This document shows positions 6,886 to 40,226 of a stretch of 42,394 nucleotides of DNA, one piece after another. This DNA is from Octopus sinensis. Its lineage: Eukaryota. Below the pieces are notes generated by a model, which worked only from the letters and a program-made list of their open reading frames with translations, did no database searches and had not been told where the DNA came from. The position numbers and the translations under genes were made by a program. Each line of letters starts with the position of its first letter. Position 1 is the first letter of the stretch. The stretch is from assembly GCF_006345805.1 (NCBI RefSeq), contig NW_021835262.1:1-42394 (forward strand), given 5' to 3'.

Positions 6886-7261
6886 ATCTTCTCCATCCCA
6901 AATCATTATATCACGTCTTTTGTGCTTACGTTTTATTGGTTTTCACTAGGACTCCACCAGTACTTTTTTTTTATTACGACTGGCTATGGCTTCCACCGTA
7001 CTGTATATGTGTATGTATGTATGTATGTTGGTATATGCACAATGCAGTGTGAATTACAAAGCTAATATTAATTTACAGCTTTCAAGTCTTTCACTGAGGC
7101 ACTTTCAACAGCTGAGAATGCAGGGTGGGCCAAAAGTCACGCACAAGATGAGTTCAATACGCTCTGGAACTGTCAAAGGCATGCTTCAGTTTTTCTAAAA
7201 CTGCATAAAATAAATAAAATGATGATGAATACACATATGATGAGCAAAATGATTAATAATA

Positions 7262-7580
7262 ATCATTTCTACGATAGGGTTAGGGTCTGAAATTTGGTGG
7301 GATGGGGCCATTCGATTAGATTGACTCCCAGTGCGCAACTGGTACTTAATTTATCGACCCCGAAAGGATGGAAACCAAAGTCGTCTCCGGTGGAAGTTGA
7401 ACTCAGAATGTAGTGGCAGACAAAATACCTATTTTTATTTCTTTACTACCCAGAAGGGGCTAAACACAGAGAGGACCCCAGTGCGTAATTGGTACTTATT
7501 TAATCGACTCCGAAAGGATGAAAAGGCAAAGTCGACGGAATTTGAACTCAGAACGTAATGGCAGATAAAATACCGCCAAG
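7262..7580 (-). mobile_element. Nin-domain SINE fragments
   Basis: Reverse complement of GCCTTTCATCCTTTCGGGGTCGATAAATTAAGTACCAG, a Nin-like central domain. Confidence 0.7.
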
Positions 7581-7581
7581 C

Positions 7582-7618
<37 letters not shown>

Positions 7619-7642
7619 TAATAATAATTAATAATAATAATT

Positions 7643-8021
7643 ATAAGAGCACTCAGAGCGCAAATCTTCGCCAAGACAACACCAATGTCCTTTCAACGAT
7701 TAGCTGGAGATTTTTAAAATGAGAATATCTGAAATAACCTCGAGTGCTCTCACAGACAAGAATACAAAAAAAAATAATAAATAAAATAAAATAAATCCGA
7801 CCGCTCTCAAAAATTAAGTAAAAAACCGGAAAAATAATTCAGAATCTTTATCCGGTATCTGATCGATCCCTAGATCTAATCAATTTGTGCCAATCATGAG
7901 GCCAAACATCCCTGAAAGTTACATTCGAATCCATCCGGCGGTTCTTGAGATATCTCGTCCACGGACAAACAAACAAATGCGACCGTAAACAATACCGCCA
8001 CCTTAGCGAAGGCGGAGGTAA
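7643..8021 (+). mobile_element. Helentron-associated (HINE/DINE-1/Pearl-like) non-autonomous element
   Basis: 5' AAGAGCACTCAGAG..CTTCGCCAAG; ACAAACAAAC microsatellite; 3' hairpin ACCGCCACCTTAGCGAAGGCGGAGGT followed by AAT. Confidence 0.5.
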
Positions 8022-8029
8022 TAGTAATG

Positions 8030-8120
<91 letters not shown>

Positions 8121-8173
8121 CAACAATAATAATAATAATAATAATTATAATTATAATAATAATAATAATAATA
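8022..8173. repeat. (AAT)n microsatellite
   Basis: About 50 nearly perfect units, read directly. Confidence 0.95.
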
Positions 8174-8382
8174 AAATACATAACGAAAACACCAGGACTT
8201 ACAAACACATATAACATACAGAAAATTGCACTACTAGGCACTGCACACATCCTACGCAGAACACTTTCCATACAAGAACCATCAGAGCATCACAACAAAT
8301 CACAGCACATACCCAAGGCACACAGAGCTGCGCTCGGTAGTGAAGTGAAAGCAAGCTATAAAAATAAAACTACTGAATAATA
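8174..8382 (+). mobile_element. R4/Dong-like LINE 3' end within (TAA)n
   Basis: KYITKTPGLTNTYNIQKIALLGTAHILRRTLS resembles the R4/Dong ORF C-terminus; the short UTR ends in AATAATAA. Confidence 0.7.
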
Positions 8383-8479
8383 AAAATAATAATACAAGCG
8401 GAGGATACTGTACAAAACATCTTTCTTCCCCATCTCTCTCTCTTTCTCTCTTGCTGCTGTAATTTCTCAGAAAATATTG

Positions 8480-8625
8480 TATGCAAATACCTCAGTCGCT
8501 GTATGCATGACTGCCACTCTCGTGTGGGCCTGTACAAGCACAAGAGACACTGCATCACCTTCATCAACTGACACGATTTCTTTCGGTGCAGATCCGTGGC
8601 CTCTCGAGACCAACGGCTGCCTTCT
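8480..8625 (+). mobile_element. RTE-type LINE 3' end fragment
   Basis: RCMHDCHSRVGLYKHKRHC resembles the RTE terminal zinc finger CxSRxGLxxHxRxC; a short UTR follows. Confidence 0.55.
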
Positions 8626-9437: not shown

Positions 9438-10009
9438 TATATATATATATACGTATACACACACACACACACACACACCACGCACACACACACCACACAC
9501 ACACATATATATATATATGAAAATAATAAGGGTAGAAAATTTAGAGAAGTATTTTAGTGGTGGCCTGCATGCGTAATAAAGTCAATAGGCAACATATTTT
9601 TCATATAAATTAGCGCCATTACTGAAGAAGCACGGATGGCAAATTATTTTATTTGCACATTGTTGTTGAAACTCGACTATAAGCGTAACTATTGAAATGT
9701 TTTTATTTTTCATTCGCCTTGAAATTACTCCTATTCGTGGTTTGGACTTTAACTGCCCTTTTTAAAATGTAAGGTGCCCTATTAAGGTCACACTAATTTA
9801 TATATATATATATATACATATATTTTTTTAATATGTTATTATTATTAATATAAGGAAATTAATATCCAAATTCATCATAAAGATATACCCGTGTGAAAAA
9901 CCTTATCGTATTAAAAATATATATAAATAAATATAAAAATATAAATATAATGTATATCTTTGTGTGTGTGTGTGTGTGTGTGTGTTTGTGTATTTATAGA
10001 TATAGTGAA

Positions 10010-29266: not shown

Positions 29267-29724
29267 TGAAAGAAACAGACATAAACTAAAAGAGAGGGAC
29301 TATTACAAAGGGTGAGAGAGAATATGTGAGAGAGCAAGCGATATAGAGAATGTAAAAAAAGAGGGAGAAGAGAGAAATAAACAGAGAGATAAAAGGCAGA
29401 GAATCGGTTGAAAACTGCAGAAGTTTTTAGAGAAAAACCTGTGTAAGACACCGTTATTCTCGGTTTCTCGCTTTACGCGGGAGCTCTAGGCCAATAGTTA
29501 TAGTGCATAACCATCCTTGGCACATACGTAATGTGAGTGTAAAGTTTGGTGAAAATCGGTTGAAAACTGTAAAAATGCATAGCTACTACACACACACACA
29601 CACACATGCACACAGACACACACACACACGCGCGCGCGCAGAATTCTTTGTTTTATATAGTTATATATACATGTACGCACGCGCACGAACACACAGATGC
29701 GCGCGCGCGCACACACACACACAC

Positions 29725-30670
29725 AAGGAACCAAGGTGATTGTAAGTATCTGATGGAATTTTCCTACCCCCAACAAAAATAACCCAAAATCACAGGCTTT
29801 TGTAATTTCGAGGAGGAAAATCCCTTTGGGGGCCTGAATTCAGACTTGTTTAACTTTACAGAATTCCTCTCGGAGGCTTTGTATATTTGTGTGTGTGTGT
29901 GTGTGTGTGTGTGTCTGTGTGTGTGTGTGCGTCTGTGTGTCCGTGTGCGTGTGTGTGTGTCCGTATGCGTGTGTGTGTGTGTATAGCACAAGGTCAGAAG
30001 GTTTTTTATATATTCTTCGCAGAATGATCTTATCGTTCGGATTTTCTGGATTTTCATTTACACAGATACTTGACATCACACTACTTCGTAATTGATAACC
30101 TCGTGGACTGATAGCCGTGTCCGAAGAGGTGCTTACAGAGGTAACTGCACAGTTCTCTGAATCCATATTTCATACTACACCACACACACACACAAGGAAC
30201 CAGGTGATTGTAAGTATCTGATGGAATTTTCCTACCCCCAACAAAAATAACCCAAAATCACAGGCTTTTGTAATTTCGAGGAGGAAAATCCCTTTGGGGG
30301 CCTGAATTCAGACTTGTTTAACTTTACAGAATTCCTCTCGGAGGCTTTGTATATTTGTGTGTGTGTGTGTGTGGTGTGTGTGTGTCTGTGTGTGTGTGTG
30401 CGTCTGTGTGTCCGTGTGCGTGTGTGTGTGTCCGTATGCGTGTGTGTGTGTGTATAGCACAAGGTCAGAAGGTTTTTTATATATTCTTCGCAGAATGATC
30501 TTATCGTTCGGATTTTCTGGATTTTCATTTACACAGATACTTGACATCACACTACTTCGTAATTGATAACCTCGTGGACTGATAGCCGTGTCCGAAGAGG
30601 TGCTTACAGAGGTAACTGCACAGTTCTCTGAATCCATATTTCATACTACACCACACACACACACACACAC
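29725..30670. repeat. Near-identical ~470-bp tandem duplication bounded by (CA)n
   Basis: AAGGAACCA(A)GGTGATTGTAAG at ~29725 and ~30194; the same ORFs are duplicated in the track. Confidence 0.9.
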
Positions 30671-35706: not shown

Positions 35707-36839
35707 CAGTGAATGGCAATGAAGGTCCAGTAGCGTAGATGAAGAATCAAAGGAGTCCATCGGTAATAAATGTATGGGAAACACTGATTTAATGCTTAGT
35801 ACTTTTAATTTTTTCTTTCTTTCCTTACTTGTTTTATTTTGATTAAATTAGTATTTTTTTCATATATTTATTGTTTTCACTCATTAAGTTTTTGCCTTGG
35901 TTATTTTTCAACGGAGAGCCAAAGATTGGAGGTTTTTTTTGCTTATTTTTTAACAGAAGACAAATTGAATTGATATTATTCATTGAATTAATTTACTCTT
36001 TAAATAACAAAATTAATGTTAAATTAAATAGCTTTTACAATAAAAAAAATTATACATTTATTAATGTAAGAAAATAAAGATGACCGAAATATTGAATAAC
36101 TCACACCGCATTTAAACAGGGCTTTTATCTATTTGAAATTGAATGGTCTTATTTTATTGAGTCCTTTACTATGCTTAACACTCAGAAATATTCTCGTTTC
36201 TTTGACGAAATCTTTATTCCTACATGTCACATACAGACATGCAACCATAAACACACATACATGCAAACGCATAATACATTCCTACGAGAAAACTGAGTTT
36301 CATCATGATAAGAAGGATGGTGATGTTGAGGTGGAGATTGTAGTAATGATAATGAAGATGGTGACGGCGACAACGATGGCGACGATAACATGACGGTATT
36401 TATGAGCATTATACTGATGATGATGGCCATGAAAATGATATGATGGTGATGATGGTGATAATGAGGGTGATGGTGATGATGATGGTGGTGGCGGTGATGG
36501 AGATAATCCCTATGATGATGATAATGGTGCTGGTGTTAATGAAGACGAGGAAATAAACAGAGAATAAATAAAAGACTTGTGGATTTAGCGGTCGAATTTA
36601 GAACATTTATAAATGTCCTAAAATCTTCACAGCCTTGGCTTTTTTTTTATTTCATACTGAAAAACATTCATATATTCACGTGCCGATATATGACCCACGT
36701 TGGACCCCTTATTCGCATAATACGCCCTGAACTTAACTATGGTCTATCCATAGCACTTACTCAGCATTACCTGACACCTTTGGGTCTTACTGACACCATT
36801 ACCTCCCATAGCCTATATATATATAAATATATATATATT

Positions 36840-36884
<45 letters not shown>

Positions 36885-37141
36885 TTTAACAATTAAGGAT
36901 AATCTCTTAATAAGGGATCTTAACAAGAAATTATCGGGTAGCTAGCGTGAAAACCTCGTAAAAGAAAAGAATTCGAAAATAATTTTTTTCTTTTGAACAA
37001 ATTAATTATATCTATATTGTATAGAGGGCATTATTACACATAAATGCCTCACACTAGGAGGGACAAAGTCATTACTACCAAAATTATACTATCATACCCA
37101 ATGCAGTTTTTTCAAAGCAAGACATTTAAAAAAATGAATTT

Positions 37142-37200
37142 AGTTCTGTATCACCGTGATTTCACATTCAACTTTACGTCTAATGATCGTCAGCAGAACT
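37142..37200 (-). ncRNA. Type I hammerhead ribozyme (unit 1, motif intact)
   Basis: AGTTCTG-CTGACGA-TCATTAGACGTAAAGTTGAATGT-GAAA-TCACGGTGA-TA-CAGAACT; helix I 7 bp, cleavage triplet AUA. Confidence 0.82.
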
Positions 37201-37616
37201 GATTCTGATACATCATAAATAAACTACCAACCTTACGTAGCGAAGACAAACAGACAATGCTCACTCCGGCAAGCACATGGAATGTTTATAAATCAATATA
37301 CCCGTAAATGGCGGCTTTTTTTACGAACTGCATGTCGGTTAATGAAAAGTATTTCGAATAAGTTTAACAATTAAGGATAATCTCTTAATAAGGGATCTTA
37401 ACAAGAAATTATCGGGTAGCTAGCGTGAAAACCTCGTAAAAAAAGAATTCGAAAATAATTTTTTTCTTTTGAACAAATTAATTATATCTTATTGTATAGA
37501 GGGCATTATTACACATAAATGCCTCACACTAGGAGGGACAAGTCATTACTACCAATTATACCTAATCATACCCAAATGCAGTTTTTTCAAAGCAAGACAT
37601 TTAAAAAACTGAATTT

Positions 37617-37672
37617 AGTTCTGTATCACCGTGATTTCACATCACTTTACGTCTAATGATCGTCAGCAGACT
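37617..37672 (-). ncRNA. Hammerhead copy, unit 2 (small deletions)
   Basis: Core intact; single-base deletions in helices I and II. Confidence 0.6.
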
Positions 37673-38094
37673 GATTCTGAATACATCATAAATAAACTAC
37701 CAACCTTACGTAGCGAAGACAAACGACAACTGCTCACTCCGGCCAAGCACATGGAATTTTTATAAATCATATATCCGGTAAATGGCGGGCTTTTTTACGA
37801 ACTGCATGTCGGGTAATGAAAAGTATTTCGGAATAAGTTTAACAATTAAGGATAATCTCTTAATAAGGGATCTTAACAAGAAATTATCGGGTAGCTAGCG
37901 TGAAAACCTCGTAAAAGAAAAGAATTCGAAAATAATTTTTTTCTTTTGAACAAATTAATTATATCTATATTGGAAGAGGGCATTATTACACATAAATGCC
38001 TCACACTAGGAGGGACAAAGTCATACTACCAAAATTATACTAATCATACCCAAATGCAGTTTTTTCAAAGCAAGACATTTAAAAAACTGAATTT

Positions 38095-38152
38095 AGTTCT
38101 GTATCACCTGATTTCACATTCAACTTTACGTCTAATGATCGTCAGCAGAACT
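38095..38152 (-). ncRNA. Hammerhead copy, unit 3
   Basis: Core intact; one-base deletion in helix III. Confidence 0.65.
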
Positions 38153-38573
38153 GATTCTGATACATCATAAATAAACTACCAACCTTACGTAGCGAAGACA
38201 AACAGACAACTGCTCACTCCGGCCAAGCACATGGAATGTTTATAAATCATATATCCGGTAAATGGCGGGCTTTTTTACGAACTGCATGTCGGGTAATGAA
38301 AAGTATTTCGGAATAAGTTTAACAATTAAGGATAATCTCTTAATAAGGGATCTTAACAAGAAATTATCGGGTAGCTAGCTTGAAAACCTCGTAAAAGAAA
38401 AGAATCGAAAATAATTTTTTTCTTTTGAACAAATTAATTATATCTATATTGTATAGAGGGCATATTACACATAAATGCCTCACACTAGGAGGGACAAGTC
38501 ATTACTACCAAAATTATACTAATCATACCCAAATGCAGTTTTTTCAAAGCAAGACATTTAAAAAACTGAATTT

Positions 38574-38631
38574 AGTTCTGTATCACCGTGATTTCCATTC
38601 AACTTTACGTCTAATGATCGTCAGCAGAACT
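38574..38631 (-). ncRNA. Hammerhead copy, unit 4
   Basis: One-base deletion just before GAAA. Confidence 0.6.
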
Positions 38632-39044
38632 GATTCTGAATACATCATAATAACTACCAACCTTACGTAGCGAAGACAAACAGACAACTGCTCACTCCGG
38701 CCAAGCACATGAATGTTTATAAATCATATATCCGGTAAATGGCGGGCTTTTTTACGAACTGCATGTCGGGTAATGAAAAGTTTTCGGAATAAGTTTAACA
38801 ATTAAGGATAATCTCTTAATAGGGATCTTAACAAGAAATTATCGGGTAGCTAGCGTGAAAACCTCGTAAAGAGAAATTCGAAAATAATTTTTTTCTTTTA
38901 ACAAATAATTATATCTATATTGTATAGAGGGCATTATTACACATAAATGCCTCACACTAGGAGGGACAAAGTCATACTACCAAAATTATACTAATCATAC
39001 CCAATGCAGTTTTTTCAAAGCAAGACATTTAAAAAACTGAATTT

Positions 39045-39101
39045 AGTTCTGTATCACCGTGATTTCACATTCAACTTTACGTCTATTGATCGTCCAGAAC
39101 T
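39045..39101 (-). ncRNA. Hammerhead copy, unit 5 (core damaged)
   Basis: The CT of CTGACGA is missing. Confidence 0.45.
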
Positions 39102-39522
39102 GATTCTGAATACATCATAAATAAACTACCAACCTTACGTAGCGAAGACAAACAGACAACTGCTCACTCCGGCCAAGCACATGGAATGTTTATAAATCAT
39201 ATATCCGGTAAATGGCGGGCTTTTTTACGAACTGCATGTCGGGTAAGAAAAGTATTTCGGAATAAGTTTAACATTAAGGATAATCTCTTAATAAGGGATC
39301 TTAACAAGAAATTATCGGGTAGCTAGCGTGAAAACCTCGTAAAAGAAAAGAATTCGAAAATAATTTTTTTCTTTTGAACAAATTAATTATATCTATAGTG
39401 TATAGAGGCATTATTACACATAAATGCCTCACACTAGGAGGGACAAAGTCATTACTACCAAAATTATACTAATCATACCCAAATGCAGTTTTTTCAAAGA
39501 AGACATTTAAAAAACTGAATTT

Positions 39523-39578
39523 AGTTCTGATCACCGGGTTTCACATTCAACTTACGTCTAATGATCGTCAGCAGAACT
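39523..39578 (-). ncRNA. Hammerhead copy, unit 6 (helix III and cleavage site altered)
   Basis: CTGACGA intact; indels and substitutions near the cleavage site. Confidence 0.5.
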
Positions 39579-39839
39579 GATTCTGAATACATCATAAATA
39601 AACTACCAACCTTACGTAGCGAAGACAAACAGACAACTGCTCACTCCGGCCAAGCAATGGAATGTTTATAAATCATATATCCGTAAATGGCGGGCTTTTT
39701 TACGAACTGCATGTCGGGTATGAAAAGTATTTCGGAATAAGTTTAACAATAAGATAATCTCTTAATAAGGGATCTTAACAAGAAATTATCGGGTAGCTAG
39801 CGTGAACCTCGTAAAAGAAAAGAATTCGAAAATAATTTA

Positions 39840-40178
39840 CGACATGCAGTTCGTAAAAAAAGCCCGCCATTTACCGGATATATATGATTTATAAACATTC
39901 CATGTGCTTGGCCGGAGTGAGCATTGTCTGTTTTTGTCTTCGCTACGTAAGGTTGGTAGTTTTATTTATGATGTTTCAGAATCAGTTCTGCTGACGATCA
40001 TTAGACGTAAAGTTGAATGTGAAATCACGGTGATACAGAACTAAATTCATTTTTTTAAATTCTTGCTTTGAAAAAACTGCATTTGGGTATGATTAGTATA
40101 ATTTTGGTAGTAATGACTTTGTCCCTCCTATGTGAGGCATTTATGTGTAATAATGCCCTCTATACAATAGATATATAA
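39840..40178 (+). repeat. Inverted partial copy (~340 bp) of the array unit
   Basis: CGACATGCAGTTCGTAAAAAAAGCCCGCC.. is the reverse complement of the unit; ends in (TA)n. Confidence 0.95.
39984..40042 (+). ncRNA. Type I hammerhead ribozyme in the inverted copy (motif intact)
   Basis: CTGACGA at 39991-39997, GAAA at 40021-40024; predicted cleavage after A40035. Confidence 0.82.
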
Positions 40179-40189
40179 TATATATATAT

Positions 40190-40226
<37 letters not shown>

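Follow-up and report, generated by a model that had tools for sequence, protein, structure and literature searches.

How is a short tandem repeat that encodes no protein, and that carries a hammerhead ribozyme in its unit, copied from place to place in an animal genome? The question is raised by a locus of Octopus sinensis (assembly GCF_006345805.1, contig NW_021835262.1), analysed here in a window of 42,394 nucleotides that corresponds to the whole of this unplaced 42-kb contig. A first-pass annotation of the window had read the block at 36881-40178 as a candidate retrozyme. We propose that this block belongs to a family of non-coding, 483-bp hammerhead repeats with ends of the type left by Penelope-like elements (PLEs), which would spread as a small circular RNA copied by a borrowed Penelope-like reverse transcriptase (RT)/endonuclease; we give this reading as a whole a probability of roughly 0.55. 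What appears to tie the element to Penelope-like machinery is an inverted second arm and two fixed 3' ends, both overlooked in the first-pass annotation.

At the window locus, Tandem Repeats Finder (TRF) recovers 6.2 head-to-tail copies at 36880-39838 (period 475, 95% matches), in agreement with the annotated row of units, but the last part of the block, 39840-40179, is an inverted 340-bp partial unit (reverse complement, + strand, approximately 0.7 unit). The overall layout consists of 6.2 units on the − strand standing back-to-back with a 0.7-unit arm on the + strand, the whole lying between (TA)n tracts as previously described (Table 1). When the unit is numbered from the predicted cleavage site (q1), the long arm begins at q165 and, after six ribozymes, terminates 3' at q270 (end A); the short arm begins at q292, includes one ribozyme and terminates 3' at q~135-143 (end B). 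The annotated unit length of ~478 bp fits the window copies (473-480 bp) but not the cleaner copies found at other loci (~483 bp), since 1-3 nt deletions are scattered along the former. The window copies differ by ~3-4% between units, and their defects, differently placed in every copy, look like read errors. The parts of the hammerhead that had been named, i.e., helix I (AGUUCUG/CAGAACU), the core (CUGACGA...GAAA), helix III (AUCA/UGAU) and the AUA site, are all present, although the copy within 39960-40070 lies on the + strand and not on the − strand, which had been stated for each full unit.

The arrays are dispersed, as the first-pass annotation had anticipated. Over the 2.72-Gb genome (about 30 chromosome-scale contigs), an exact 30-nt ribozyme pattern has 571 matches and a control pattern none, and the 40 scored of 898 candidate regions contain 246 unit matches. 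On contig C1, 57 ribozyme matches group into 25 loci, from which we estimate by scaling ~250 loci genome-wide. The unit is a short, non-coding, low-GC tandem repeat found in dispersed dimers to multimers, and the family seems young, as the majority of copies have 92-100% identity with a natural reference unit. The unit also occurs in short-read contigs of six organisms.

The two-armed layout is the rule in this family. It was scored at 69 loci, comprising 39 best-scoring ones (L037 was dropped as a duplicate of L031, the two forming a segmental duplicate pair) and 30 more taken in genome order: 53 are two-armed, always back-to-back, and 16 one-armed, including L031, whose adjoining copy belongs to a sibling family, and L163, despite a tiny A arm missed by BLAST. 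The pairing of the ends is ordered, with 51/53 two-armed loci combining A and B, two combining A with another end, and none showing A with A or B with B; in the position-ordered subset, chosen without regard to score, all 23 of 23 are A+B. End B is the 'short' end, and end A the 'tail' end, ~130 nt further on. TA runs adjoin 62/62 A ends and 56/59 B ends (118/121 together), and a target-site duplication (>4 bp where retrozymes have one) is unreadable because both flanks are (TA)n. The start points expected to vary do so at the 5' ends, which are scattered over the whole unit, but the 3' ends are fixed. At 26 of 30 junctions the inner ends overlap by 1-40 nt in inverted orientation, and three junctions are symmetric. 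Either arm may be the longer one (the B arm in 13/28 loci), and arms exceed two units in 26/62 A arms and 17/59 B arms, reaching up to 7.8 units. Two sibling families repeat both end classes. In individual arms we observed an internal restart (L041, 3288-3307) and an interruption by a 1.7-kb insertion (L150, 5830-7530).

An inverted, 5'-truncated copy, a tail of 30-40 bp that is often found at one end only, and a bias for microsatellites have been described for PLEs (PMC8557442, PMC3846280). Here, the inverted 5'-truncated head-to-head copy is found at 53/69 loci and the one-end tail at 51/53, and we consider it very likely that a PLE is the copying enzyme.

The second question is whether the hammerhead is genuine. 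The core pattern is matched by six of the seven window hammerheads, two of them letter-perfect. The covariance-model check proposed for it did not lend support: Rfam returned no ribozyme in the sequence, at either its gathering or its E-value thresholds, and folding z-scores range from -0.05 to -0.91 for three copies, with +0.29 for a broken one. Support for the predicted fold comes from covariation rather than from energy. A sibling family, ~69% identical over the unit, keeps the core and has helices changed in compensating pairs; over eight distinct sequences, 98.1% of cells are paired, with changes on both sides in 7/20 pairs, including 4/6 in helix I, a level reached by 0/500 shuffles and to be compared with 24-44% paired in slid controls, a comparison that is not a p-value since the structure was derived from these very sequences, which are related to one another, and the small size of this set counts against the reading. 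Positions C3, U4, G5, A6, G8, A9, G12, A13 and A14 are each changed at most once in 212-217 family units, whereas the free position N7 differs in 47/216; G8, the CpG partner of C7, differs in 0/217. The motif is also kept in a third family. This conservation of the core argues that cleavage matters, and we regard cleavage by the hammerhead as likely.

Which RNA was copied can be read from the variants of each locus. The rate of mismatch at informative sites rises from 0.70% inside an arm and 0.82% across the two arms of a locus to 11.45% when loci are compared with each other. Eleven variants private to a locus are present in all units that cover them, eight of them in both arms (7/39 loci), and the one private to L041 is found in 15/15 units across its two arms. 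Of 218 units, 210 are exact in sequence across the cut site. A new variant that fills both arms points to one monomer that was re-read, most simply as a circle, and the same haplotype in both arms over up to 7.8 laps would imply a monomer bottleneck; pooled linear monomers are disfavoured because jumping between them would mix haplotypes. The template was thus probably a circular RNA. In L068, a variant is present in alternate units over three repeats, the pattern expected of a dimer circle, and in L069 both arms contain a deviant unit in lap 3. At the window locus, a deletion seen in 2/178 units sits in lap 1 of both arms and a substitution is restricted to the long arm, in its laps 1-5, so that this locus records either a heterogeneous multimer or a template switch after lap 1. 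Collectively, the dispersed young arrays, the covarying type I hammerheads and the locus-wide homogeneity support the retrozyme reading of the first-pass annotation.

How the second arm arises is suggested by the position of the shared variants. At two marked sites, the short arm of the window agrees with the outer laps of the long one, as is also the case in L069; such outer-register sharing is not predicted by fold-back, which starts at the inner junction. We prefer twin priming because either arm may be longer, because few junctions are symmetric, and because in vitro data agree: the purified PLE protein of the anole, predicted to be a dimer, was seen to cut both DNA strands and to extend both, its two initiation sites lying inside the RNA at either limit of the tail (PMC11167929). 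Priming from both DNA ends is, on these grounds, rather probable. We envisage that the tandem array would be transcribed, that the hammerheads, probably acting as dimers through their palindromic helix III, would cut the transcript to monomers, and that a host ligase would circularise the monomer. A PLE protein, probably a dimer, would cut both strands of a (TA)n tract, and both DNA ends would prime on one RNA, one at site B and the other at site A, ~130 nt downstream. Both enzymes would roll past the ribozyme junction for up to ~8 laps, both cDNAs would stop at random points, and microhomology would join them head-to-head, a multimeric template being used for some insertions instead. It is possible, if somewhat doubtful, that every insertion preserves the trace of an ordered twin priming on circular RNA, in which a PLE dimer would direct one DNA end to start site A and the other to start site B of one molecule, both enzymes would go on for several laps, and the element would achieve this by its structure alone, lacking sequence homology to its host PLE.

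A number of results weigh against this reading. The outer register seen in the window and L069 is opposed by L053, where a private variant lies in the innermost unit of both arms, and the register test, from which L041 and L150 were left out as their register is undefined, is not significant (four offset-0 pairs versus 2.6 expected, over eight shared variants); two of these eight fit the outer register only, one (L053) the inner only, two are ambiguous and three fit neither. A monomer circle was not the sole template, given that the window, L069 and L068 are not homogeneous, and a mild enrichment of 5' ends at q1-60, just past the cut site (29/123 versus ~15 expected, some of them BLAST splits), hints at some linear templates. 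The RNA evidence is weak, as it comes from four runs only guessed to be RNA, compared with a natural unit and its flank through contigs that carry no strand, end or circularity information: run X11 covers 15/15 unit bins and 0/15 flank bins, and run X18 has a single 503-nt contig across the unit, but runs X10, X15 and X18 cover the flank too, which is a poor silent control because it is itself a repeat. The hammerhead is not the minimum free energy (MFE) fold (-9.8 kcal/mol when constrained, -11.0 for the MFE), and it has a U.U pair at the base of helix II, where the siblings have G-C. Helix III does not fold alone and pairs between copies at -11.9 kcal/mol; together with the U.U pair this predicts modest ribozyme activity, a situation with a counterpart in the axolotl HHR_Amex2, which also has U.U at this place and cleaves weakly alone, better as a dimer (PMC7229834). 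Eight of nine predicted frog retrozyme dimers did not cleave in vitro (bioRxiv 10.64898/2026.07.22.740005), and mutation of the ribozyme did not prevent the anole PLE from inserting in vitro (PMC11167929). The tail of ~130 nt is 3-4 times longer than the usual published range for PLEs, and two PLE families resident in the genome have tails of ~45 and ~32 nt. Finally, none of five resident PLE families shares detectable terminal sequence with the unit at the sampled loci: BLAST and a two-sequence profile over 80 PLE-associated loci found separate sibling insertions only, 42 loci of the fifth family gave only the single junction (L114) that had led there, and local alignments to the ends of three families are not convincingly above shuffles (11-166 of 200).

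The points just listed have to be set against other ways of generating the observed two-arm layout, fixed A and B ends, TA flanks, haplotype common to both arms and hammerhead covariation. The same PLE machinery and the same two start sites might have used an uncleaved, linear read-through transcript of an array already present, in which case most insertions would require no circle and the ribozyme would act rarely or at another step. Unit differences that recur in both arms of the window, L069 and L039 indicate that a multimer was copied, which fits such a template, as do the apparent weakness of the ribozyme and the observation that unprocessed RNA is the main substrate of the anole PLE in vitro (PMC11167929). 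Yet linear copying is unable to lengthen an array or to fix a new variant in every unit, as happened at seven loci and throughout L041, the alternation of units in L068 must at some point have involved a dimer circle, and the conservation of the ribozyme core argues for cleavage; we hold a linear template to be unlikely. Priming at one end only, with the inverted arm made by fold-back on the first cDNA or on antisense RNA and the endonuclease trimming at the other fixed site, seems to us distinctly unlikely, although fold-back was proposed for rotifer PLEs (PMC3846280) and the tail has been ascribed to endonuclease resolution (PMC8557442). The inverted overlaps at most junctions, the three symmetric cases and the innermost variant of L053 would all follow from it, but not the outer-lap variants shared in the window and L069, the mostly asymmetric junctions, or the fact that either arm may be longer, and the two start sites with extension of both strands in vitro also speak against it (PMC11167929).

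An origin at the DNA level, with single inserted PLE terminal fragments growing into a satellite by slippage, unequal exchange or DNA circles (bioRxiv 10.64898/2026.07.22.740005), would account for the tandem layout, for the partial variants over adjacent units in L053 and L049, and for the confinement of the position-15 variant of the window to five inner units. It leaves unexplained the presence of the same haplotype in two oppositely oriented arms, the fixed outer and random inner ends at 69 loci and the selection on the ribozyme core, and we judge it very unlikely. That the array is an assembly artefact made by fold-back long reads or collapsed repeats is barely credible, even for an unplaced contig with such differences between units: both flanks and both ends differ, so no read palindrome is involved, the layout recurs at dozens of chromosomal loci, and the unit is present in the short-read contigs mentioned above. 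We retain the circular RNA copied by a Penelope-like enzyme as the preferred explanation.

The element is not autonomous, in that a PLE coding match was found inside the array at none of 115 family loci, and potential partners are abundant. A first look gave 5,029 candidate elements with a GIY-YIG domain, and 10,950 candidates were obtained for the fifth family; 150 of each set were scored. Four families of Neptune/Nematis type, a label given by the CxxxxCxxC motif only, have long RT+GIY-YIG frames (781, 784, 775 and ~750 aa), and the fifth (L255, 1120-7776) combines a frame of 1008 aa with terminal repeats of 380 bp and a CA-rich 3' region of ~2.7 kb. Copies of the 781-aa family finish in (TA)n and show the short as well as the tail type of end, both of which occur together at one two-armed locus. 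The partner PLE is either outside the sample, diverged, or one that recognises structure. The hairpin that precedes end B is a candidate protein-binding or start signal; its 29-nt motif occurs 1,600 times in exact form over the genome. At L114 (1735), a sibling unit stops ~10-15 nt before its A-type end and is directly joined to the endonuclease region of the very abundant fifth PLE family, without a TA tract; this single junction, possibly a template switch, serves as a lead only. The 3' regions of Neptune-type elements at L127, L182-L185 and L179-L181 contain, by eye, minimal hammerhead-like motifs with altered cores (CCGAAGA, UUGAAAA) and a palindromic helix III. At L120, a Neptune-type 3' end occurs twice, each time together with ~1.1 kb of the flank downstream of it (984-2653 and 6917-8591, 99% identity), a pattern like that of 3' transduction or of a captured spacer.

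Table 1. Features of the two-armed hammerhead array in the window (positions of the 42,394-nt stretch).
Feature	Position	Strand	Remarks
Left (TA)n target tract	36814-36882		
Long arm, 6.2 tandem units	36880-39838	-	End A (~q270) abuts left TA tract; 5' end truncated at q165
'Tail' interval, ~130 nt from end B to end A	36880-37013	-	At this terminus only
Unit 1 type I hammerhead, letter-perfect	37142-37200	-	Predicted cut 37149/37148
Unit 2 hammerhead	37617-37674	-	Small deletions in helices I and II
Unit 3 hammerhead	38095-38152	-	1-nt deletion in helix III
Unit 4 hammerhead	38574-38631	-	1-nt deletion at helix II base
Unit 5 hammerhead	39045-39100	-	2-nt core deletion in the assembly
Unit 6 hammerhead	39523-39578	-	Helix III altered in the assembly
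Head-to-head (5'-5') arm junction	39838-39840		q165 meets q292
Short inverted arm, 0.7 unit	39840-40179	+	End B ~q135-143, blurred by TA microhomology
Type I hammerhead, letter-perfect	39984-40042	+	U.U at helix II base; helix III near-palindromic; predicted cut 40035/40036 (AUA)
Hairpin immediately before end B	40134-40160	+	Common to sibling family
Right (TA)n tract	40161-40202		Followed by (TG)n to 40249

Elsewhere in the window, a decayed fragment of a PLE RT/endonuclease (393-1570, + strand; tblastn E-value 1.5e-14, 25-32% identity) lies 35 kb from the array, a hammerhead-like motif (CUGAAGA...GAAA) at 9614-9690 (+ strand) was matched by a relaxed pattern, and two 471-bp copies at 29712-30665, 99% identical and devoid of the hammerhead pattern, represent a local duplication or an assembly slip. 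A scan for sigma-70 promoters was set aside as not meaningful for animal DNA. The same genome carries further, unrelated hammerhead-bearing repeats (L118 2157, L127 8021, L073 2621, L120 2084) and, at L062 (1430-2290 and 3030-3890), a different tandem repeat of ~515 bp in (TA)n, beside which stands, between TA tracts, a 130-bp relative (86%) that covers the A-B tail interval only.

The mobilisation of retrozyme circles by PLEs has so far been a hypothesis drawn from co-occurrence and terminal homology (PMC7229834; bioRxiv 10.64898/2026.07.22.740005), and the origin of the tandem, inverted and tail structures of PLEs has been called 'still undefined' (PMC8557442). The octopus family unites both questions in one object, with ~250 near-identical loci and private variants that serve as barcodes. 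If our reading is correct, ordered twin priming on a circle would explain the tails and inverted repeats of PLEs by one rule, and the family would offer, for the first time from a genome, evidence that transposition really uses the circles of animal retrozymes as its template. With 483 nt and two mapped start sites, the unit is also a substrate, small and marked, on which rolling, two-ended reverse transcription could be followed in vitro.

L1 retrotransposons provide a precedent for twin priming, in which the second DNA end primes on the same RNA and the product is a head-to-head inversion joined at microhomology. The second site is variable in L1, whereas it is fixed here and the template is re-read for several laps. 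Non-autonomous PLEs are known from the Chlamys clade of Chlamydomonas (MRC1, Chlamys-N4), and they resemble the present element as non-coding PLE parasites that are often multicopy, head-to-tail and targeted to microsatellites (PMC8557442, bioRxiv 10.1101/2022.05.23.493040). Unlike the octopus unit, however, Chlamys-N4 targets (C)n, the non-autonomous Chlamys families are reported to share 3' sequence with their partners, and the Chlamys and Naiad clades are described as lacking canonical hammerheads (PMC8557442).

The metazoan non-LTR (long terminal repeat) retrozymes of coral, mussel and axolotl are likewise non-coding, AT-rich tandem repeats with one type I hammerhead per unit (PMC7229834), occurring as dispersed multimers in genomes that contain PLEs (PMC7229834; bioRxiv 10.64898/2026.07.22.740005). 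At 483 nt, our unit is longer than the ~170-400 nt given in the former source and within the 51-972 bp of the latter. RNA circles and cleavage were demonstrated for metazoan retrozymes (PMC7229834), whereas the present family is known from sequence. PLEs as the mobiliser are proposed in the discussion of PMC7229834, and the preprint, a survey of vertebrates (bioRxiv 10.64898/2026.07.22.740005), adds that frog retrozymes co-occur with PLEs and have terminal homology to them, local amplification being the model it prefers; 24/57 frog families have homology to a PLE terminus there, whereas none was found for the octopus unit among the five PLE families considered here. The main texts of both sources make no mention of head-to-head arms, two fixed 3' ends or (TA)n targeting: the word 'inverted' is absent from that of PMC7229834, and in that of the preprint 'tail' is absent and 'inverted' is confined to the title of a reference. 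Within open-licence PMC and bioRxiv we found no cephalopod retrozyme and no retrozyme with inverted arms or twin priming, and supplementary species tables might list the family.

Endonuclease-bearing (EN+) PLEs (Penelope/Poseidon, Neptune, Naiad) share with the octopus element the inverted truncated copy, the one-end tail and the AT-rich or microsatellite target, as well as tandem copies and a hammerhead upstream of the 3' end (PMC8557442, PMC3846280, PMC11167929). The element found here differs from them by having no open reading frame, a ~130-nt tail, a full rather than a minimal hammerhead and multi-lap arms on both sides. In a schistosome, pairs of minimal hammerheads lie on opposite strands, 100-700 bp apart (PMC4209133), and may represent the same layout. 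The octopus element corresponds at the sequence level to what defines a non-LTR retrozyme, and in its structure to what defines a PLE insertion.

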